10,154 nt of DNA, from IMG/VR virus record IMGVR_UViG_2671181118_000005; one strand, given 5' to 3'. This stretch comes from a virus (lineage: Duplodnaviria; Heunggongvirae; Uroviricota; Caudoviricetes). The notes beneath the pieces are model-generated. The model saw nothing but the letters and a program-made list of their open reading frames with translations, was not told the DNA's origin and did not search any database. Below are positions 1 through 10,154 of the stretch, one piece after another; the stretch's first letter is position 1; each line of letters begins with the position of its first letter. The translations under genes were made by a program, and so were the position numbers.

Positions 1-2454
1 GTAATCAAACGACGATGTGGTTTTCGTCCCCAAATCCGTACTGGATGCGCTGGCGCTGTGGGTGTGCGATTTAATGCCGTCCTGTTCCTGAGACAATACG
101 GCCCGACCACTGGCAGGTTTGCCCTTAATCGTCCAGCCACGCATATCAGGGATCACGCCTGACGGATAAGCGGCTGCAAGTTTCGGGTAAGCAGATTTGT
201 CAAAAGTCTGCCCCTGCATCAGGGCATAACCAGACGGAACGGTATCTGATGGCCACGGGATTGGTGCGCCGACTGGGTAGCTTTCTGGTGGAAGATTTTT
301 CGAGGTATAAACTTCTGCCCAGCCTTCCTCAAAACCATAACCGTCTCTTGAAGAACGGTAGAACAGACCACCATTTCTGTAATGCGCCTTCATCTGCAGG
401 GTCCGGCAACTTCCGACTCCGGTATAGAAGTTAACCAGAATATAGCTGTCGCCAGAGCGGGTGACATTGTAAGCGCCTGATTCGGCATTCCAGGGAACGC
501 CACCATCCGCATCGGCATATGTATCCGTTGCCCTTCTGGCAAAAGCAGCCACATGCGCGGCGGTTAAAGTAATATCTTTGGAACCATCAAATGGAACACC
601 GGATATTTTTCTTGCAGTCTGGAGTTTTGTAGCAGTTGCAGCATTACCAGTGGTGTTCTGATTACCCGTAGTGTTTACACCTGGAAGGTTAATATTTGCA
701 GAACCGTCGAAAACAACTCCACCGATAGATCTTGCCGTCTGCAATTTCGTGGCTGTACTTGCATTACCATTCAATGAACCAGTTAATCCACCTGTAACAG
801 ACAACGGACCTGAAACTGTTCCTCCGGTTGTTGGCAGTGCTCCAATATCTGATGGTGTAGGTTTCTGATGTGAGCTATACATCGTATAAACAACACCATA
901 GGTAACGCTGGAAGGCTTACTCGCTGAATATGTTGGCGAGGTATAAACAGAAACTGACGCATTTGCAGTACAATCCCAATGGATATTTACACTCGTCGCA
1001 TAATTGCCAATCTCAACGTAAATATCATATGTATCGCCGGATGTGTTGATCCAGGCGAAATTCGTTAATCCGACGGCTGTACGCTTCCACAAAGCCCCGG
1101 TAATTCCTTTGGGGTTTCCATTGCCTGCTCGTAGAACCAGTTCTGAAATGCCTGCCTGATGTGGGGAACCGACGTTGTAACCAGCGCCACCAATCAATGC
1201 GATGTAAACGATGGAACTCGCTTGTGGCATGGTAACCGTAGCCAGTTTGAACCACCCAGCCCCGCCAGAGAAAGACATCGTTACTGAATTTAAAGTACCA
1301 ATATCTTTCGGCGTTAATGTTATATCCGCAGTCAGTGCTTTTCCGTTAACTTTTCGGTTAGATGGCACCCTGCTATTCGCATTGTCATTGGCTGCTTTAA
1401 CTGCTTTTGGCGTTGCGGCCAGCGATTCACTGGTGCTATCAACAGCACTGCTAAGTTTCACAACACCTTTAGTTGTAAGGCTTGCGTCTTCCATCGCAAC
1501 TGCACCGGCAATCTCTTCAGCACGATCAGCAGCAGCTTCCGCACGGGTCGCAGCGGATTCAGCAGTAGTTTTGCTCTGAGATGCCGCCGTCGCACTGCCA
1601 GCTGCCTCTGTCGCCTTCGTGGATGCTGTCGTGGCGCTGCCTTTCGCTGCTGATGCCTGTCTGCTCGCCTCATCTTTTGAAGCAGACGCAGATGATGCCG
1701 ATGACGCCGCCGAACTGGCGGACGATGCAGCTGCCATTTTTGAGGATTCTGCACTGGTTTCCGAGGCTTTCGCGTTCGTTTCGGATGTCTTCGCTGCGGA
1801 TGCAGACCTCGCTGCTGCGCTGGCCTGTTCAGCGGCTTCGCCAGCCTTCGTTGTGGCTGTTGAAGCAGACGATGCGGCGCTTTCTGCCGATTTTCCGGCG
1901 GCGGTGGCACTGGCTGAGGCCTGCCCGGCACTTGTTGACGCGGCACTGGCAGACGACGCAGCCGCTGTTTTTGAGCCTGCCGCAGCCGAGGCGCTCTGTC
2001 CCGCTGCCGTTTCAGAAGACCTGGCGTTTGTCTCAGACGTCTTTGCCGCCTTCGCGGAATTGCCTGCCGCCGTTGCCGAGGAAGCGGCACTACTGGCGCT
2101 TGATGATGCGTTCGTTTCTGATGATTTCGCTGCCTCTTTTGAGGCCGCCGCATCCCGGGCTGAGGTGGCTGCTTCTGACGCCTTCGTGGTCGCGGCGGAT
2201 GCAGAAGTGGCTGCTGATTGTTGTGACGCTGCCGCATTCGTTTCTGACGTTTTCGCCGCACCGGCACTGGTAGCTGCCGCGCTTTTTGAGGACTCTGCAG
2301 CAGCACTTTTTGCTGCTTCACGGGCCTTTGTCGATGCCGTTCCTGCGCTGGAAGACGCTGACTGAGCCGACGACGCGGCCTGTCCGGCTGACGTGCTGGC
2401 GGCACGTGCTGAGCCTGCAGCATCGGTTATTACCACTTCCCGGATCGCTATACG
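1..2454 (-). pseudogene. stf: Side tail fibre protein (lambda Stf family), 5'-truncated, C-terminus beyond window start. Frame is open from an in-frame TAG at 2455-2457 to position 1 and has no start codon of its own.
   Basis: Hand translation of the minus strand (codons with lowest coordinate = 1 mod 3). Positions 60-1 give [20 protein letters not shown], matching the recalled lambda Stf C-terminal region; 1740-1380 give Ala/Ser/Thr-rich sequence ([26 protein letters not shown]) matching mid-Stf; 2440-2380 give [16 protein letters not shown], matching Stf around residue 140. Spot checks at 541-600, 901-960 and 1201-1260 show no stops. Confidence 0.8.
1460..2430 (-). repeat. Low-complexity Ala/Ser/Thr-rich coding repeat inside the tail fibre gene; it leaves several frames open on both strands.
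   Basis: Reiterated GCN/TCN/ACN codons in the true frame. The six-frame track shows long stop-free ORFs in other frames (Arg/Pro/Gln-rich on minus, Ala/Asp-rich on plus) typical of such repeats. Confidence 0.6.
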
Positions 2455-3292
2455 CTATTCCGTTAAAGATAATGGGCGGAATAATGATTTGACGGTCAAA
2501 GTTATGATCATCGCTGATGGTGACTGTAACCGTCCCGTTTGGTGTTTCCGTATTACCCCACGTACCAGCCTGTTTCGGGAATGATTTGGATACAGCTTTA
2601 ACGAAGTCACCTCTGACCTGAGTCGCCTCCAGCATGCCCTTAATCGTACAGTTTTCATTTACCGTGACATTGTTGAGCGTCCCGGCGTTCGCATTCACAC
2701 TGCCACTGATATCCGCATTTTTAGCGGTCAGCTTTCCGTCCGGTGTCAGGGAAAATGCCGGTGGATTTCCACCGCTGGTAATGGTGGGGGCCGTCAGGCG
2801 TTTCAGGAACACGTCGTTCATGAATATCTGATCGCCCTGACCAACAAACATCGGTTTTGTGTTGCCATTCGCAGGATTAACCATCGCAATCCTGTCCGCC
2901 GCCAGCAGCACCTGACTCTGCATGCCGTCAGGGGTGTTCTCAATATCCACGATGGCCTCTTTTTCCGGTACATGCTGCACGGCGGTGATGGCATACGTGC
3001 CGTCGTCGTTCTCACGGATACTCACGCAGCGGAACAGGCGCTGGCGCAACGTCGGCAGCTTCAGCCCCCATACGCTGTATTCAGCAACGCCGTCAGGAAC
3101 ACGGCTCACTTTCACCTTCACGCCGTCGGTGACGGACTGAACCTCCACGCTGACCGGACTCCCCTGCCCGTCAACCAGGCTTATCAGCGTGGTGCCGGAA
3201 GATGGCAGCGTGATTTCACGGTCGAGCGTCAGCGTCCGGGTCTGGCTGTTTACCGCCAGCACGCGCCCGCCGGTGCGGATACCCAAGCTGGA
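2318..3292 (-). pseudogene. J: Host specificity / central tail fibre protein J, internal fragment. N-terminal part is missing, the C-terminal receptor-binding end is missing, and the frame runs about 40 codons out of frame into stf before stopping at 2318.
   Basis: ORF translation [29 protein letters not shown]...[14 protein letters not shown]...[30 protein letters not shown] and ...[56 protein letters not shown]... matches the recalled C-terminal third of lambda J. The J frame opens right after a TAA about 3293-3301. Confidence 0.8.
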
Positions 3293-3504
3293 GTGGCGAA
3301 CGTTTTACCCTTGCTGATGAGGTATTCACTGATTTCGCTGTACCACATGTGGCTGAGTGCATTCTGGGAAAGACTGCGTCTCTCGCGCCACGGTTTAAGC
3401 ACCATGCGAAAGCATTTGCCGTCCTCCAGATAAGGCTGGATCTGCCGACCGATAGCGGTGAAGTTACCGCGATGCAATTTGATACCATCTTGTGGGAGGT
3501 TCAC
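3250..3504 (-). pseudogene. NinB/Orf-family recombination protein, N-terminal fragment of about 65 residues joined to J-derived sequence.
   Basis: GTG start at 3502-3504 preceded by GGAGGTG. The motif ERRSLSQN...W resembles the RSLDQNRKLW region of lambda NinB as recalled. The ORF then reads through J-derived DNA to a stop at 3250. Position after ren and the cargo island fits the lambda nin region. Confidence 0.5.
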
Positions 3505-3698
3505 GCTTCACCTCCGCAGAGATCAAACGCTGGATGCAAAATATCGCAGGTGCATTTCTGCATCTGTGAATGGAGAAGAGAGGTTGGATTGTATGTGCGC
3601 ATAAACGTCCCCGTTTAGCGCAGAAGTCACCGGAGTTGTTCAGGCCCCAATGGCATGATTATGGCTGGTTGATTATTGGAAATCAAATGTGCTGAAAA

Positions 3699-4208
3699 TT
3701 AGTCTGCCAAGTCTTCCTCAGTCGCAACTGGGTAATTCCAAATATCAAAAAAAGCTATAGCCTCCTGCCATTTGCTCCATAAGTTATCAAGTACTTGTGT
3801 AGGTTCCGTACTTTTAAAAACAGAATCAGCCGCATCACCGTTATGAACTTCCTCGTACAGTTCCATTATTAGCAGATTAACAAAGTACTGTTTCAACATT
3901 AATGCCTGATTACCTTCTTTCTGCTGGCTATCCTGCTTGATGATCTCCATCGCCCGTACTAGGCACCTGATGATATCCGCTGCATCATTAACGCTCCATT
4001 CAGATCCGCGCTTATCTTTAGCTGATGAATTGGCTCTCTCAGCGCAAGCCTTTAAAGACTCATAAAGGTAAACTCTATTTTGTAGCTGCAGCGCTTTTTT
4101 TGACGTGTACCAACTTGCAAGCGCCGACCCCGCTGCGGCTAATGTGCCAAACGCAGAAATACCTGCTGCTATTGCACTTAAGTCGGCACTGTCAAAGTTC
4201 CACATCAT
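3699..4208 (-). CDS. Hypothetical 169-aa protein with a single N-terminal hydrophobic segment (likely membrane anchor) and a helical, acidic C-terminal domain. Orphan; function unknown.
   Basis: ATGATG start with AAGGTG Shine-Dalgarno about 6 nt upstream. Residues about 10-32 (LSAIAAGISAFGTLAAAGSALASWY) are hydrophobic. AT-rich upstream region, and an upstream terminator separates it from the preceding gene. Confidence 0.55.
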   Translation of the reverse strand: MMWNFDSADLSAIAAGISAFGTLAAAGSALASWYTSKKALQLQNRVYLYESLKACAERANSSAKDKRGSEWSVNDAADIIRCLVRAMEIIKQDSQQKEGNQALMLKQYFVNLLIMELYEEVHNGDAADSVFKSTEPTQVLDNLWSKWQEAIAFFDIWNYPVATEEDLAD

Positions 4209-4383
4209 CGTTACACCTTATATAAATACCCCTCAGTAATATCCAATAAGGTATGTGCACAATCAATATAATTTTATCCGTATCGGCACATAGCGATTTG
4301 AACGCTACTGGTAATGGTATATTTTAGATTATATCGTCCAGTTTACAGCACCCGTATTTTATGAAATGGACTCGCATATTACC
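4209..4383 (-). promoter_or_regulatory. AT-rich putative promoter/operator region for the 169-aa gene, including an inverted repeat ATGTGC-N27-GCACAT at 4253-4291.
   Basis: Non-coding AT-rich DNA between an upstream terminator and the start codon. The inverted repeat was seen by eye; no promoter consensus was scored. Confidence 0.3.
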
Positions 4384-4422
4384 CAAAAAATGCCAGCACT
4401 TCCGTCATCGTAGAATGCTGGC
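4384..4422 (-). terminator. Rho-independent terminator candidate downstream of the 99-aa ORF (minus-strand sense).
   Basis: Perfect 7-bp inverted repeat GCCAGCA ... TGCTGGC at 4392-4398 / 4416-4422, followed on the minus strand by ATTTTTTGGG (plus 4384-4391). Confidence 0.4.
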
Positions 4423-4466
4423 AGTATTTCTAACTAGTGACTTTATTGGAACAGATTCTGACGGAA

Positions 4467-4766
4467 TTATGGTAACACTCGACTCCACTTATCATCCAGC
4501 CACGGCTGGAATTTTACATGTGCCGTTTCTCTGGCGAGGATTGCTCGCGCTCTGTTGAGTATCTGGGGATATTCTTGCTCGATAGAAGTAAAGCGGCCGG
4601 CTTCGCGGTGCTCCGCAACCTGAAGTAGTGGAGTAACGTTCTGGCAGGCAGTTAACATCACATCACCTGCTCGCCATAACCAAGCACGTGCACAAAGTTT
4701 GTTATCAGTGAATTGTTTTGTGATTGGGTATTGTTGAACTGCTAGAACGAGAACGCCAGCATCCAT
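4467..4766 (-). CDS. Hypothetical 99-aa protein, no recognisable motif.
   Basis: ORF with ATG start bounded by an in-frame TAG three codons upstream; weak ribosome-binding site; followed by the terminator-like hairpin at 4384-4422. Confidence 0.4.
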   Translation of the reverse strand: MDAGVLVLAVQQYPITKQFTDNKLCARAWLWRAGDVMLTACQNVTPLLQVAEHREAGRFTSIEQEYPQILNRARAILARETAHVKFQPWLDDKWSRVLP

Positions 4767-4877
4767 TGGCAGTCCCTATAGTAAAACCATAGCTCAGGAC
4801 GCTTCGTTCAGGATAGATAATTTTATTGTGCTTACCTAACTTTCTTACTATAGCACGGTTGAAAAAGTGATTATTAC

Positions 4878-6404
4878 TCAAAAATAAACCTCACCATCAA
4901 CCATATATTTGAGAGTACTTATCGCCTGCTGGGCGGATATTGTTTTCATTAAAGGATAGTGTTTAAAAACAATGCCATTCATAAAATAGATATCACAGGT
5001 TTTATTATCTGTATTGATTATGATTTTTTCGAATGTTTTATAGGCAAGTGTACGACATAGCTCTCGCCCATTTTTACTGGTTAAGTCAATAGCATGAAAA
5101 TCACCAAGTGAACTCACCGCTTTACTCTTCAAAGTTTTTAATGATACAGAAGCCCTTCGTAATTCCTTATCTAATACTCTGATTTTTTCTGCTATAGCGG
5201 TAACTTCAGGCGCAACAGATAATGCAGCAATTAAATTATTAATTTTCATCTGGAGCTCAATAATTTTCAACTCTAAAGTTTCATTAGCATCTTTCTTGTT
5301 TTCAACTGGTTGGATTTTACTACAATTAAAAAGCAACTCATTAATGATATTATAATCAACCAAATCTCTCTTTATTGATGGCCTGTCACATCGATGCAGT
5401 CTTCTCATCGGACAAACATAATAGCCATGCAAACTTCCAGATACCGCATGAACAATCATGGTATTACCACAAGCCTCGCACTTCATAACTGTTCGAAGTA
5501 GATTTATCAACATAGGATTTTTGCTACTATTGCTAATACCAAAAGGTGCCAACCGAATTTCCTGCACAGCGTAAAACAAATCATCTGATATGACTCTGGG
5601 ATAATAGCCAGCGATTTCACTTATTCCTTTACCTCTTGCACGATATGAAGGTACGCATATACCTATCAGAGCTTTATTCGCTAATAATTTTTCAATTACA
5701 GAAGGTCCCCATGCACTTTCTTTTCCTGAGAAATTCTTTACAGCATGATCATTTAAATACTTGGCTATTGCATTCAATGAGCGCCTTTCCATCCTGAGTT
5801 TAAAAATTAGCTCAATAGTTTTCACCCTGTCGGGGTCTGGAACAAAAGCCGTTCTTTTGTCATCCAATGAGAGCCATCTCGGACAAGACGCCGTCATAAT
5901 CGTGCCTGACTCCAGTGCATCCTGCCGTTTTTTCTTCCATGATAATTTAACCCGACTTGACTTTATCTCGCTTTCTTCATTTGCCCTTTGTGCTATAAGT
6001 ATGGCTTTTATTAATGAATATGGCTCATTCAATGAGTCAATATTATAGACTGTATTATCGCAAAGAGTTATAACATCAATACCGTGATTCAAAATCAATT
6101 TCAGACGCTCAATCGCCTCACCGACTTTTTCTCTTGAAAGTCTGTCCAGACTTTCAACTAACAATGTAGTCCCTGGCAATATATAACCATGTTCTATAGC
6201 ATCTAAAAATTCCGAAAAAGCTCCTGATTGTGCATGCTTTCCATTGAATGCGCTTAACCCCAAATCTTCATACGTTACGGTATCAAGGTAATAATCACTA
6301 TTTACCTTTAGCCATTCAGTAATAAGCCTTCTCTGGCGGTTTAATGAATCACCAGACATCTGACTTGGTGATGAAAATCGCATATATGCTATGGCTTTTT
6401 TCAT
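4878..6404 (-). CDS. ybcK: Large serine recombinase, 508 aa (resolvase-type catalytic N-terminal domain, recombinase domain, Cys-rich zinc-ribbon, coiled-coil region). Resembles the DLP12 putative recombinase YbcK.
   Basis: N-terminal AYMRFSSPSQ...R motif typical of serine recombinases; C-x2-C ... C ... C cluster (CEACGNT...YYVCPMRRLHRCDRP). Length and position next to emrE match K-12 ybcK as recalled. AT-rich codon usage. Confidence 0.85.
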   Translation of the reverse strand: MKKAIAYMRFSSPSQMSGDSLNRQRRLITEWLKVNSDYYLDTVTYEDLGLSAFNGKHAQSGAFSEFLDAIEHGYILPGTTLLVESLDRLSREKVGEAIERLKLILNHGIDVITLCDNTVYNIDSLNEPYSLIKAILIAQRANEESEIKSSRVKLSWKKKRQDALESGTIMTASCPRWLSLDDKRTAFVPDPDRVKTIELIFKLRMERRSLNAIAKYLNDHAVKNFSGKESAWGPSVIEKLLANKALIGICVPSYRARGKGISEIAGYYPRVISDDLFYAVQEIRLAPFGISNSSKNPMLINLLRTVMKCEACGNTMIVHAVSGSLHGYYVCPMRRLHRCDRPSIKRDLVDYNIINELLFNCSKIQPVENKKDANETLELKIIELQMKINNLIAALSVAPEVTAIAEKIRVLDKELRRASVSLKTLKSKAVSSLGDFHAIDLTSKNGRELCRTLAYKTFEKIIINTDNKTCDIYFMNGIVFKHYPLMKTISAQQAISTLKYMVDGEVYF

Positions 6405-6659
6405 GGTGACACCTGCTAAAGTATGCTTTTATAAACCTTAGTGGTGAGATATGATTTTTGTTTAATTTTTATTTAAAAAGACAATTAAGGTCACATTATC
6501 TTGAATATACAACAATAATCGTATTGCAATTTTCTTACACCATAATCTTGAAAGCACAAAAGAATGAATAAAAACTAAAGACATTAACAAAAAGCATAAA
6601 ACGAGGCCCATATAAATATACGAGCCTCCATATTTTAGTCGTTTAAAAACAAATTATTT
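6405..6659 (-). promoter_or_regulatory. AT-rich intergenic region; probable promoter region for the recombinase gene.
   Basis: About 255 bp of very AT-rich non-coding DNA between the emrE stop and the recombinase start. Confidence 0.3.
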
Positions 6660-6992
6660 TTAATGTGGTGTGCTTCGTGACAATAAATTAATAACCAACA
6701 CACCGGCACAAATCAACATCATGCCTATAATGGCTGGCAGGTCCAACCGTTGGCCGAAAAATCCCCATGATAGTAAGCTAATCAGGACAATACCGACTCC
6801 TGACCAGATAGCATAAGCAATCCCTGTAGGAATATAAGCCAGCGTCTGAGCTAATAACCAGAATGATGCACAATAACAAATAATTGTACCAACAGATGGC
6901 CATAACCGTGTAAAACCTTCTGAAAACTTCATTAAGGTTGTACCAATGACCTCTGCAAGTATTGCACCACCAAGATAAATATAAGGGTTCAT
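6660..6992 (-). CDS. emrE: Small multidrug resistance (SMR) efflux transporter EmrE, 110 aa.
   Basis: From the internal Met (MNPYIYLGGAILAEVIGTTLMKFSEGFTRLWPSVG...LSRSTPH) the translation is near-identical to E. coli EmrE as recalled. AGGAAAG ribosome-binding site upstream of ATG at 6990-6992. The upstream 18 codons in the track ORF are probably not translated. Confidence 0.93.
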   Translation of the reverse strand: MNPYIYLGGAILAEVIGTTLMKFSEGFTRLWPSVGTIICYCASFWLLAQTLAYIPTGIAYAIWSGVGIVLISLLSWGFFGQRLDLPAIIGMMLICAGVLVINLLSRSTPH

Positions 6993-7059
6993 AGCATATT
7001 CTTTCCTGTTCAAACTGGAGAGAATTGTACTACAGTTTGAACTCAACTCACCTGTTTCA

Positions 7060-7362
7060 TCATTGTGTACCCATTGATGTTCTTTTATATACCCTCAATA
7101 CCCGTTTCATCGCGGCACTCTGGCGACACTCCTTAAAAATCAAATTCGTGCTCACCTTTCCTTCCCATTCTTCTCTGGTAGCGAACCGATAATACACCGT
7201 TCGCCAGACCTTACCATCAACGACTAGGATTCCTGCCCGCGCCATTTTAGCCGCAGCCTGATTTATGCTGGTTACCGTTGCGCCTGTTACCGCGGCAACG
7301 TCCTGCGCACAGAATTTCTTATGAGTCCCCAGGTAATGAATAATTGACTCTTTGCCCGTCAT
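7060..7362 (-). CDS. ren: Ren protein (lambdoid Ren exclusion-related protein), 100 aa.
   Basis: MTGKE.IIHYLGTH...TGATVTSINQAAAKMARAG...VWRTVYYRFATREE matches lambda Ren as recalled. 4-bp ATGA overlap with the P stop, as in lambda. Confidence 0.85.
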   Translation of the reverse strand: MTGKESIIHYLGTHKKFCAQDVAAVTGATVTSINQAAAKMARAGILVVDGKVWRTVYYRFATREEWEGKVSTNLIFKECRQSAAMKRVLRVYKRTSMGTQ

Positions 7363-8060
7363 ACCCTTGCTCCTTTCAGCCCAAACTTAGCTTTGATTTC
7401 TGCGATCTTCGCCAGAGCCTGTGCACGATTTAGAGGTCTACCGCCCATGACAGGAAGTTGTTTTACTGGTTCAGGTATAGCCTCACCACGGTTAATTCGT
7501 GCGGTCATACAGGACAGTTCATCGGCAGCCTTGCGCCGTAATTCCGCGTCAGTCAACGCATTGGCCCGCATGTTCTGATACAGGTTGGTAACCAGCCAGT
7601 AGTGCGCGTTTGATTTCCACGGATAAGACTCTGCATCCGGATACAGCCCGCGCTTCCGGCAATACTCGTAAACCATATCAACCAGCTCGCTGGCGTTTGG
7701 CAGCCCGGCGGTAACGGATGCTTCTTCCCGGCACCAGGCGACAAACTGCCCGGGTGATGGCAGGAATGGTCGATTCTGCCGACGGGCTACGCGCATTCCA
7801 GCGTTAACCTGTTCCATTGTGGTGATCCCGTTTTCCCGAAAAGCCAGCACCCACTGGCGGCGGATTTCGTTCAGTTCATTCTGGTCACGGTTAGCCAGGC
7901 TCGCCGGGAAAGTTGCCAGTAACTGGCTGAACACACCGTTGATGATCTGCGCTACCTGCTGTACCTGTGGCTTTTCGTCGTACTGTTCCGGCATGTTGTT
8001 GGCGATCCGACGCATCTGCTCACGGTCAAAGTTAACCATCTGTGCGGCGATGTTTTTCAT
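7359..8060 (-). CDS. P: Replication protein P (DnaB helicase loader), 233 aa, apparently full length.
   Basis: MKNIAAQMVNFDREQMRRIANNMPEQYDEKPQVQQVAQIINGVF... matches lambda P almost residue for residue as recalled. Start overlaps the O stop (ATGA), as in lambda. Confidence 0.92.
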   Translation of the reverse strand: MKNIAAQMVNFDREQMRRIANNMPEQYDEKPQVQQVAQIINGVFSQLLATFPASLANRDQNELNEIRRQWVLAFRENGITTMEQVNAGMRVARRQNRPFLPSPGQFVAWCREEASVTAGLPNASELVDMVYEYCRKRGLYPDAESYPWKSNAHYWLVTNLYQNMRANALTDAELRRKAADELSCMTARINRGEAIPEPVKQLPVMGGRPLNRAQALAKIAEIKAKFGLKGARV

Positions 8061-8296
8061 AGATCCACCCCGTAAATCCAGTCAGTGTTTGTCAGGTCGA
8101 GTTTTGGTTTGCCGACTGTCACGCCAGCCTGTTGCTTGTTCCGGTTGATTTCGAGCTGGGTCCACTTGTCGCGGAGTTTGGCCGGACTCAGCACGTTACC
8201 GGACCAGAAGTTGTCCTGGCAGGCCCAGCGGAACAGTACACACATGTCGCGGTGGTTACGTCCATCACGTTCACGCATCAGACGGATATCGTTACC
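8057..8296 (-). pseudogene. O: Replication initiator O, C-terminal fragment of about 78 residues; N-terminal domain and the origin iterons are deleted.
   Basis: Minus-strand translation [76 protein letters not shown] matches the lambda O C-terminus. Upstream of about 8296 the same strand is antisense exo sequence. Confidence 0.85.
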
Positions 8297-8947
8297 GGGA
8301 TCGACGTGAGAGCTGTCGAACAGGGGGATGATGCGTGGCACAAATTACGGCTCGGCGTCATCACCGCTTCAGAAGTTCACAACGTGATAGCAAAGCCCCG
8401 CTCAGGAAAGAAGTGGCCTGACATGAAAATGTCCTACTTCCACACCCTGCTTGCCGAGGTTTGCACCGGTGTGGCTCCGGAAGTTAACGCTAAAGCACTG
8501 GCCTGGGGAAAACAGTACGAGAACGACGCCAGAACCCTGTTTGAGTTCACTTCCGGCGTAAATGTTATTGAATCCCCGATCATCTATCGCGACGAAAGTA
8601 TGCGCACCGCCTGCTCTCCCGATGGTTTATGCAGTGACGGCAATGGCCTTGAACTGAAATGCCCGTTTACCTCCCGGGATTTCATGAAGTTCCGGCTCGG
8701 TGGTTTCGAGGCCATAAAGTCGGCTTACATGGCCCAGGTGCAGTACAGCATGTGGGTGACGCGAAAAGATGCCTGGTACTTTGCCAACTATGACCCGCGT
8801 ATGAAGCGTGAAGGCCTGCATTATGTCGTGGTTGAGCGGGATGAAAAGTACATGGCGAATTTTGACGAGATGGTGCCGGAGTTCATCGAAAAAATGGACG
8901 AGGCACTGGCTGAAATTGGTTTTGTATTTGGGGAGCAATGGCGATGA
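8293..8947 (+). pseudogene. exo: Lambda-type exonuclease (Red-alpha / Exo), missing roughly its first 10 codons; fused upstream to antisense O/P DNA, with a fortuitous in-frame ATG at 8132.
   Basis: Translation from [31 protein letters not shown]... to ...[14 protein letters not shown] matches lambda Exo as recalled. bet and gam are not upstream where expected. Confidence 0.9.
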
Positions 8948-9009
8948 CGCATCCTCACGATAATATCCGGGTAGGCGCGATCACTTTCGTCTACTCCATT
9001 ACAAAGCGA

Positions 9010-9038
9010 GGCTGGGTATTTCCCGGCCTTTCTGTTAT
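9010..9038 (+). terminator. Candidate intrinsic terminator downstream of exo (lambda tL3-like position).
   Basis: GGCTGGG-TATTT-CCCGGCC hairpin (7-bp stem with one G-U pair) followed by TTTCTGTTAT. Confidence 0.3.
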
Positions 9039-9098
9039 CAGAAATCCACTGAAAGCACAGCGGCTGGCTGAGAAGATAAATAACAAACAGGAGGATAT

Positions 9099-9718
9099 AT
9101 GAGTCAGGTTGGTAATCATTCATTCGAATTTCCGGCATCGCAAGGTGTACAGGGTGGTACTGTTACACTCTTCCTTACCATACCAGGAAGATCGCTGGCT
9201 CGTTTCCTCGCTTCAGATAATTACGGCCATACACTGGAACGCTCTCAGCGAGAAATTAATCCAAATCGAGTACGAAAATTTTTAAATTATCTCACTAACG
9301 CAGACTCAAGAAATGAGCCTTTTATCATTCCCCCTCTCGTAGGTAACTGTGATTCGAATATAGAATTTGTACCGTTTGGCAACACAAATGTTGGTATAGC
9401 CAGAATTCCCCTCGACGCCGAAATAAAACTTTTTGATGGTCAACATCGTGCAGCTGGCATTGAGATATTTTGCCGAAGTTCCCCATCAACGCTCATGGTT
9501 CCCATGATGCTTACAATGAATCTGCCGCTAAAAACCCGGCAGCAGTTCTTTTCGGACATAAATAACAACGTTTCTAAGCCATCAGCGACCATCAATATGG
9601 CGTATAACGGCCGGGATGATATTGCTCAGGGAATGATATCCTTCCTGACCCAACATACTGTATTTGCCGATATAACCGATTTTGAACACAACGTAGTGCC
9701 ATTAAAAAGTAATATGTG
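9099..9718 (+). pseudogene. DGQHR-motif protein (DndB-like, ParB/Srx-fold family), 3'-truncated after about 206 codons by the IS insertion.
   Basis: ATG at 9099 with AGGAGG ribosome-binding site. Translation contains the family-defining FDGQHR motif (…AEIKLFDGQHRAAGIEIF…). The last 16 codons of the track ORF ([16 protein letters not shown]) are encoded by the IS left end, not by the gene. Confidence 0.7.
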
Positions 9719-9772
9719 TGAACCGCCCCGGGAATCCTGGAGACTAAACTTCCTGAGAAAGAGGTAAACAGG

Positions 9773-10099
9773 ATGACTAAAAATACTCGTTTTTCCCCCG
9801 AAGTCCGTCAACGGGCAGTCCGTATGGTTCTGGAAAGTCAGGATGAATATGACTCACAGTGGGCGGCAATTTGTTCCATTGCCCCAAAGATTGGCTGTAC
9901 GCCGGAGACTCTGCGTGTCTGGGTTCGCCAGCATGAGCGGGATACCGGGGGCGGTGATGGTGGGCTCACCAGCGCTGAACGTCAGCGTCTGAAAGAGCTG
10001 GAACGTGAAAATCGTGAACTGCGCCGCAGTAACGATATCCTTCGCCAGGCTTCCGCTTATTTTGCGAAGGCGGAGTTCGACCGCCTCTGGAAAAAATGA
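9773..10099 (+). CDS. IS629-group transposase OrfA (helix-turn-helix plus leucine-zipper subunit), 108 aa.
   Basis: [60 protein letters not shown]... matches IS629 OrfA as recalled. Confidence 0.9.
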
Positions 10100-10154
10100 T
10101 GCCACTGCTGGATAAGCTGCGTGAGCAGTACGGGGTCGGACCGGTATGCAGCGA
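10096..10154 (+). CDS. IS629-group transposase OrfB (catalytic subunit), N-terminal 19 codons only; made as an OrfAB fusion by -1 frameshifting at the A-rich slippery run.
   Basis: The -1 frame reads [19 protein letters not shown], matching the recalled OrfB N-terminus; slippery sequence GGAAAAAATGATG at 10089-10101 overlaps the orfA stop. Confidence 0.7.

Follow-up and report, generated by a model that had tools for sequence, protein, structure and literature searches.

A deletion joint between ybcN and the interior of J in a cryptic lambdoid prophage at icd of Escherichia coli

A stretch of 10,154 nucleotides of viral DNA (IMG/VR record IMGVR_UViG_2671181118_000005), which we call the window, contains a joint at which the 5' part of ybcN passes directly into the interior of the tail-tip gene J. 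We conclude with high confidence that this joint was left behind when one lambdoid prophage, resident at icd, lost ~23 kb of its DNA in a single intrachromosomal deletion. The anatomy of the joint, its collinearity with intact relatives, its 4-bp microhomology and its distribution among E. coli genomes were all observed directly. The scar is real but ordinary, as both of its halves are already annotated as partial pseudogenes in RefSeq, and if there is wider interest it possibly lies only in the short sequence, GGTA with a TA core, which recurs at the deletion joints of related prophages.

Structure of the joint

The ybcN' open reading frame (3504-3250, minus strand) encodes 84 aa from a GTG start at 3504 to a stop codon at 3252-3250. 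From residue 1 to residue 75 the product agrees at every position (100% identity) with the intact, 151-aa YbcN of 88-3493, and the identity to YbcN, the match to NCBIfam NF007281 and the end of the DNA homology together delimit a 5' fragment comprising codons 1-75 of 151 (3280-3504, minus strand). Against NF007281 the window ORF matched positions 1-76 of 151 with 134 bits, which is below the cutoff of 164, and the intact protein of 88-3493 scored 279 bits over positions 1-151. YbcN itself matches Pfam NinB (PF05772) weakly (21 bits vs a gathering score of 23.8), and a Pfam scan of the 84-aa ORF gave no hit, the link to the family being made through NCBIfam and the intact homologue. Judged from its sequence, the window ORF is best described as a truncated pseudogene of the YbcN / NinB family and not as a member protein.

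The homology to intact ybcN DNA terminates at 3280 and the homology to J begins at 3283 (3284 in some alignments), at J codon 488 of 1165, therefore the two partners have 4 bp, GGTA (3283-3280), in common. In three-way displays of the product and both parents, which locate the joint at 3280-3283 on the minus strand, the ybcN parent reads CCAGCTTGGGTA^AAAG (TTGGGTA^AAAG at the break), the J parent reads ATGCCGGTA^TCCGCACC (GCCGGTA^TCCG at the break) and the window product reads CCAGCTTGGGTATCCGCACC. Beyond GGTA the partners have nothing in common and are otherwise unrelated. Since J and ybcN are read in different frames (3504-3286 = 218, i.e., 2 mod 3), ybcN' terminates after nine foreign codons, read directly from the sequence as out-of-frame J DNA followed by a TAA stop (3250-3279, minus strand). 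The original prediction had a NinB-like frame running from 3504 for about 65 codons before continuing into J DNA in another frame; the frame and the switch were confirmed, but 75 codons are kept. It had placed the joint within 3250-3300, an interval that does contain the breakpoint at 3283-3280, now defined by alignment to intact lambdoid prophages. It had also named a naturally short NinB-family gene as the finding that would overturn it, and the length of intact YbcN, 151 aa with homology ending at codon 75, rules this out.

No IS element, target-site duplication, extended repeat or recombinase-site symmetry was found at the ybcN/J joint, which leaves the 4-bp GGTA as a short microhomology of the kind seen at illegitimate deletion joints, and the joint lacked the features of site-specific recombination by a Pin-type invertase or by YbcK. 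A scan for promoters and terminators near the joint gave no signal above chance. In relatives, RefSeq describes ybcN' as 'NinB/YbcN family protein, incomplete, missing C-terminus', and marks both ybcN' and J' as 'incomplete; partial in the middle of a contig'. Both are, in all likelihood, dead gene fragments.

The element that carries the joint

The window stops short of int and the att sites, and the bounds of the element were taken from the complete genomes of E2 and NCTC9100. In E2 and 15 other complete genomes, window positions 1-9718 lie within an element of ~17 kb that extends from icd to a duplicated icd 3' end. It carries, in this order, int, xis, DUF4222, TraR, a DGQHR-domain gene, DUF1317, exo'/'O, P, ren, emrE, ybcK, three small ORFs, ybcN'/'J'/'J'/'stf, tfa, a McrB-like ATPase gene, mcrC and icd'. 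As the element of E2 and NCTC9100 lies between icd and the 3' icd duplicate, the two flanks of the joint are parts of a single element delimited by att sites. Q and the lysis, terminase and head genes are absent from E2 and NCTC9100, and the element is a cryptic icd-integrated lambdoid prophage of E. coli.

The retained early-right block, from 'O to the ylcH-like ORF (3501-8293, minus strand), shares 99.8% identity with the argU prophage of 88-3493 across 5015 bp. It encodes, all on the minus strand, P (8060-7359), ren (7362-7060), emrE (6992-6660), the serine recombinase gene ybcK (6404-4878), a P22AR-C fragment (4766-4467), a 169-aa ORF (4208-3699) and the ylcH-like ORF (3602-3501). A comparison with DLP12-type prophages had been suggested in the original prediction, and the P-ren-emrE-ybcK-ybcN module is DLP12-like, but the element sits at icd, not argU, in all relatives found. 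The emrE-ybcK-ybcN module is native in icd phages (C7, CV261), so a DLP12 origin is not required. Identity per segment to any one reference ranges from 89 to 99.8%, as expected of mosaic lambdoid phages, which leaves room for separate histories of the two sides of the joint before the deletion.

Several features of the element were noted in passing. The emrE-ybcK module (window 4878-6992) occurs between ren and ybcN in prophages at argU, attLambda and icd, while in RM9513 emrE-ybcL-ybcM stand alone beside fliE, adjoining IS1 and an IS200/IS605-TnpB element. The module may itself be a mobile unit. At the end of the window (9719-10154) an IS3-family element (IS629/IS1203-like), with orfA from 9773, interrupts the DGQHR-domain (DndB-like) gene, leaving an ORF of 222 aa compared with the full 1065 bp (~354 aa) in E2. 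Its ALIL frameshift pseudoknot (RF01497, 10054-10154) is the sole Rfam match. An IS at the position of window 9719 is absent from all of the complete genomes, so that the strain from which the window derives is not one of them. The DGQHR-domain gene (14556-15620 of locus L003) is kept in E2, NCTC9100, 98-3133, EC24 and NCTC9087, i.e., in all examined icd decay variants with this lambdoid left arm. The pair of genes for the McrB-like ATPase and McrC (L003 26077-29150) is kept in every variant examined, including ML35, where it is IS3-interrupted, and FJ_Ec_21, and the McrBC-type right arm was found in 289 of 5,426 genomes. This points to selection for cargo of the defence type during erosion of the phage core. 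The icd prophages of Nissle, APEC O1 and 25a are of a different NinB-bearing type and held no usable joints.

The interval lost at the joint

The missing DNA was identified from two intact, full-length and collinear lambdoid prophages, that of 55989 at attLambda and that of C7 at icd. The ybcN and J breakpoints lie 23,591 bp apart in 55989 and ~22.6 kb apart in C7, which occupies the same icd site as the window element. The C7 prophage is complete, its Xis, DUF4222 and TraR accessions are those of the E2 remnant and it is intact from ybcN through J; CV261 (O157-type) holds a second full-length icd prophage. The lost interval comprises the rest of ybcN, ninE, ybcO, rusA, ylcG, quuD, a porin gene, the lysis genes, nohD/terminase, the head genes, the tail genes and J codons 1-487, which bears out the proposal that Q and the lysis, terminase, head and most tail genes had been deleted. 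Aligned to the 55989 prophage, five segments of the window keep its order and orientation, and their alignments abut at each joint; at ybcN/J the flanks are collinear, co-oriented and abutting in comparison with both 55989 and C7, as a deletion scar left by illegitimate recombination should be. The prophages of C7, CV261 and 55989 have the same gene order and orientation as the window in every retained segment. They differ in being complete (45-50 kb), with the 22.6-23.6 kb that are absent here, and in their right-end cargo (e.g., sitABCD in C7).

The J remnant and the other scars

Counting this joint, the window holds four collinear scars (exo/O, ybcN/J, J/J and J/stf), two of which fall within or at the end of the J remnant. 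J fragment 1 (2944-3283, minus strand; about codons 488-601 of 1165) is 97.4% identical to J of 55989 and 95% to J of phage phi458. It ends at the J/J scar (2944-2945, minus strand), an in-frame 933-bp deletion with the microhomology TA (GTGGATA^ / GCCGGTA^) that removed J codons ~602-911. J fragment 2 (2425-2945, minus strand; about codons 912-1084) is 99.2% identical to J of phi458 and 91.2% to that of 55989, and the final ~81 J codons, including the C-terminal receptor-binding end, are absent. The survivors are therefore two internal pieces, and not the C-terminal third of J that had been supposed. At the out-of-frame J/stf scar (2424-2427, minus strand; joint at 2425/2424) ~1.4 kb is gone, including the J C-terminus, lom and the first ~145 stf codons; a clean microhomology was not found at this joint.

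The J frame (3286-2318) matches Pfam Phage_Tail_Tip and the first half of Ig_GpJ_C as well as NCBIfam lambda_TipJ, which, together with homology from 3283, supports the earlier claim that the DNA downstream of the joint is J-derived. The ORF of 322 aa has only a TTG start assigned by the ORF finder and ends out of frame inside stf DNA. Against NF049904 (lambda_TipJ), a profile of ~1163 positions with a cutoff of 1950 bits, the remnant scored 491 bits in two stretches, the better one at profile positions 910-1100, and it is accordingly a fragment and not a member of the family.

The stf-derived tail-fibre fragment (1-2424, minus strand) is rich in Ala/Ser repeats, continues past the left end of the window and is 89-95% identical to stf of 55989 and phi458; in relatives it is annotated 'phage tail protein'. 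Two long open frames within it, 1458-2423 (minus strand) and 1619-2365 (plus strand), are wrong-frame or antisense readings of the Ala/Ser-rich repeats, and their translations are of low complexity (Arg/Gln/Pro-rich and Ala/Asp-rich, respectively). RefSeq lists the antisense stf frame in relatives as a hypothetical protein. At the far side of the retained block, the exo'/'O scar (8293-8294, minus strand) has the microhomology TA and marks the loss of 4.4 kb, including bet, gam, kil, the repressor/immunity region and the 5' part of O. The ybcN/J joint had been described as a second large deletion; exo/O at 8294-8293 is indeed another scar, but the window holds at least four.

Distribution and sister states of the prophage

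The original prediction raised the question of whether related strains have the same joint, and they do. The identical joint was found in 17 of 5,426 complete E. coli genomes at 98.6-100% identity, among them ML35, NCTC9100, E2, TUM3755, RM10410, Z217 strains and several chicken isolates, and the total is 18 when Z1323HEC0011 is counted. In the latter (locus 4413-4425) a secondary 261-bp deletion between two copies of GTATCCG removes most of J fragment 1. One of these copies was created by the ybcN/J joint itself, which shows that a scar can seed further erosion. Every genome with ybcN/J also has J/J and all but one have J/stf, the exception having lost that scar to a later deletion. Among the 5,426 complete genomes none was an intermediate with only some of the four scars, whether exo/O with an intact ybcN or ybcN/J without J/J, and the parent is consequently inferred from relatives and not observed.

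Close relatives have lost different parts of the same prophage. The core flanks of E2, NCTC9100 and the O157:H16 strain 98-3133 are 99.93-99.97% identical. In 98-3133 and six others (seven genomes) the exo/O scar is kept and a P'/'stf deletion removes the ybcN/J region. NCTC9087 has the same arms, intact exo/bet/gam and a single deletion from the kil side to tfa, and EC24 has a bet'/'cro scar and an IS1-associated loss. The exo/O scar is common to the remnants of the 98-3133 type and absent from NCTC9087 and EC24, both of which keep bet. In ML35 (locus 3691-3781) the remnant has been joined, inside P at CTGCGTA^CAGCAGG, to an e14-like element (ymfL ... baseplate genes, ymfQ'), and this bond in P is also the left breakpoint of the P'/'stf deletion in 98-3133. 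These sister states are alternative, independent decay products of one ancestral icd prophage, and as such they provide the strongest support for reading ybcN/J as an internal deletion.

GGTA and TA at prophage deletion joints

Our survey took in 30 deletion joints of remnant lambdoid prophages, located at icd, argU (DLP12 of K-12, PSS-10), attLambda (YZ_2_2, PSJ-12), Rac and Qin, with intact relatives supplying the parents of each joint; the sample was opportunistic and from one phage group, and 28 joints were tabulated with two added later. Among the tabulated 28, an exact microhomology of at least 2 nt was present at 19, and TA lay inside 18 of these 19, compared with a chance level of 4.6% for random breakpoint pairs in a reference (binomial probability ~1e-23). 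The two later joints had AG and a single T, so that over all 30 joints, 18 of the 20 microhomologies that reach 2 nt include TA. In 18 of the 28 joints the break of one or both partners fell exactly at GGTA^ (18 partner sites) or TA^CC (5 sites), against a background for GGTA and TACC of ~0.4% of positions each. The strand bias was 18:5 (p = 0.011), with GGTA usually on the late-gene sense strand, and about one third of the joints were without the GGTA/TA pattern. The ybcN/J joint fits it fully, with GGTA on both partners.

Four GGTA sites recurred, each serving in two strains and with a different partner in each. These are the P site CACAGGTA^CAGCAG (ML35 and 98-3133), the stf site TGTCGGTA^TTGG (98-3133 and Z1323HEC0011), the portal site GACGGGTA^TCCTGG (PSS-10 and YZ_2_2) and the stf site GTCGGGTA^ACCG (K-12 Qin and PSJ-12). 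Two joints of PSJ-12 have GGTA on one side and only A in common, therefore GGTA looks primary and the pairing at TA secondary. The used GGTA sites did not differ from 156 unused GGTA sites in hairpins or in any extended motif.

Candidate causes of the TA joints were considered in turn. The Pin invertase does not account for them, as the e14 pix sites have an AA/TT core and the conserved 12-bp half-site is absent here. A segment of 1045 bp at the terminase/portal boundary of PSS-10 (locus 16694-17739) is inverted in place with 2-nt overlaps of TT and AA, as expected of a Pin-type invertase acting on pseudo-sites, and because of these overlaps it represents a different process from the TA joints. 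YbcK was rejected as a general cause, since Qin and Rac are without ybcK and yet have TA-type joints. Pseudo-ends of IS1 (GGTAATG..., the tip of the IS1 end as seen in sequence) do not fit by cut position, given that IS1 transposase would cleave 5' of GG and not after TA. The BREX motif, which we take to be GGTAAG, would fit one site only, and the preference that we assume for type IA topoisomerases, 'C at -4', would be matched at roughly the chance rate. We know of no enzyme with GGTA/TA specificity, and a literature search for a TA/GGTA deletion signature returned nothing relevant. Rpn nucleases were set aside because no sequence specificity has been reported for them (PMC5350276).

Origin of the joint

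The deletion would have arisen by break-and-rejoin, or by a template switch of a replicating strand, between the GGTA in ybcN codon 74-75 and the GGTA in J codon 487-488, one copy of which is left. With it went whatever else the nin region contained, as well as Q, the lysis genes, cos/terminase, every head gene and the majority of the tail genes, so that the prophage was permanently grounded; what stayed behind is a truncated ybcN with nine out-of-frame codons and a stop, and a J' without its own start. The scar was subsequently passed on in one E. coli sublineage together with the window's other three. The process was probably a RecA-independent illegitimate recombination, by template switching or end joining, and the four deletion events, too, can be placed in order only by inference. 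The retention of emrE, ybcK, stf-tfa and the DGQHR and McrBC-like genes may reflect either neutrality or selection for cargo.

A rival account concerns the number of events and not the identity of the joint, on which it agrees. The ybcN/J, J/J and J/stf joints could have come from one complex event, with multiple breaks or serial template switching, as might be imagined from three joints within 860 bp that leave J islands of only 340 bp and 521 bp, and from the presence of J/J in every ybcN/J genome and of J/stf in all but one. We regard this as rather unlikely, as co-occurrence is equally expected under shared descent, the sister lineages show free single deletions in the element, and the joints are without inserted or inverted filler. 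Recombination between a DLP12-type element and another lambdoid phage, in place of a deletion within one prophage, is far less probable again. The 99.8% identity of the O'-to-ybcN' block to the argU prophage of 88-3493 between icd-typical arms would suit such an exchange, as would the fusion in ML35 of a second icd-integrating element (e14-like) at P, but the emrE-ybcK-ybcN module is native, in the same order and orientation, in C7, CV261 and 55989, the remnant has only one int/attL, the icd' attR at its other end and no chromosomal DNA in between, and an exchange with an argU element ~0.6 Mb away would rearrange the chromosome. Finally, the 84-aa and 322-aa ORFs are both open, which is what a naturally short NinB-like gene next to a functional tail-tip-derived gene, or an assembly chimera, would offer in its favour. 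This account, to which we give next to no credence, is already refuted: the YbcN homology ends at codon 75 of 151 and the other nine codons are wrong-frame J DNA, the J ORF has only the TTG start of the ORF finder and an out-of-frame end in stf, and the identical sequence is present in 17 independently assembled complete genomes.

An internal deletion is also compatible with the idea that the position of its ends was not left to chance. The recurrent GGTA/TA pattern suggests non-random break sites, which simple microhomology-mediated slippage does not predict. Breakpoints may have been set by a nuclease, topoisomerase or recombinase-like activity that prefers GGTA with its TA core, or by a strand-specific replication event, in which case the ybcN/J deletion would be one instance of a general GGTA/TA-directed decay of prophages. 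Both partners of ybcN/J being GGTA, the excess of TA in microhomologies (18 of 19 vs 4.6% expected), GGTA or TACC at 18 of 28 breaks, the 18:5 strand bias and the independent reuse of four GGTA sites speak for this idea, which we nevertheless consider a tentative one that is more probably wrong than right, as no matching enzyme was found in the literature, the used sites have no extra motif or hairpin compared with the 156 unused ones, and about a third of the joints, in an opportunistic sample of one phage group, lack the pattern. For the same reasons of sampling we treat the pattern as an unexplained lead. Its strongest form, that lambdoid prophage erosion in E. coli is mostly non-random, starting at GGTA, sealing at TA and preferring one strand through an undescribed activity or replication event, with ybcN/J as a typical product, is possible but doubtful. 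Were the signature to hold, the domestication of prophages in E. coli would proceed through a specific, sequence-directed breakage and rejoining that could be identified genetically.

Taken alone, the joint is of minor importance and records the loss of lytic and structural genes from a cryptic prophage in which emrE, a serine recombinase gene, tail-fibre genes and defence-type flanks persist. It is useful as a lineage marker, being found in 18 of 5,426 complete genomes, many from poultry, and it belongs to a well-resolved set of alternative states into which the ancestral icd prophage has decayed.

Comparison with known systems

The e14 element of K-12 occupies the same icd att site and has the same duplicated icd 3' end, but it has another integrase, baseplate-type tail genes and the pin inversion system, and is without the ybcN/J joint. 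DLP12 of K-12, at argU, carries the same P-ren-emrE-ybcK-...-ybcN module at ~95-97% identity and is also a lambdoid remnant with internal deletions, exoD'/peaD and aaaD'/tfaD, TA being common to both joints. It differs from the window element in its argU site, in its integrase, in its intact ybcN, in having retained nin-Q-lysis-nohD, in its other breakpoints and in having no J fragment.

In mechanism, the closest parallel is with illegitimate, RecA-independent deletion at short homologies, which, like ybcN/J, gives a clean joint with few common bases and no mobile element or filler. Deletions in lacI reportedly formed in this way (Albertini et al. in 1982), and the formation of lambda Spi- phages by the same short-homology route is said to have been described by the Ikeda laboratory; to our knowledge, the common bases in both cases have no fixed sequence. 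On deletion formation at short homologies see also PMC11372144 and PMC3375238. The ybcN/J joint differs from the lacI and lambda Spi- deletions in that its common bases are GGTA, part of a recurrent TA/GGTA pattern.
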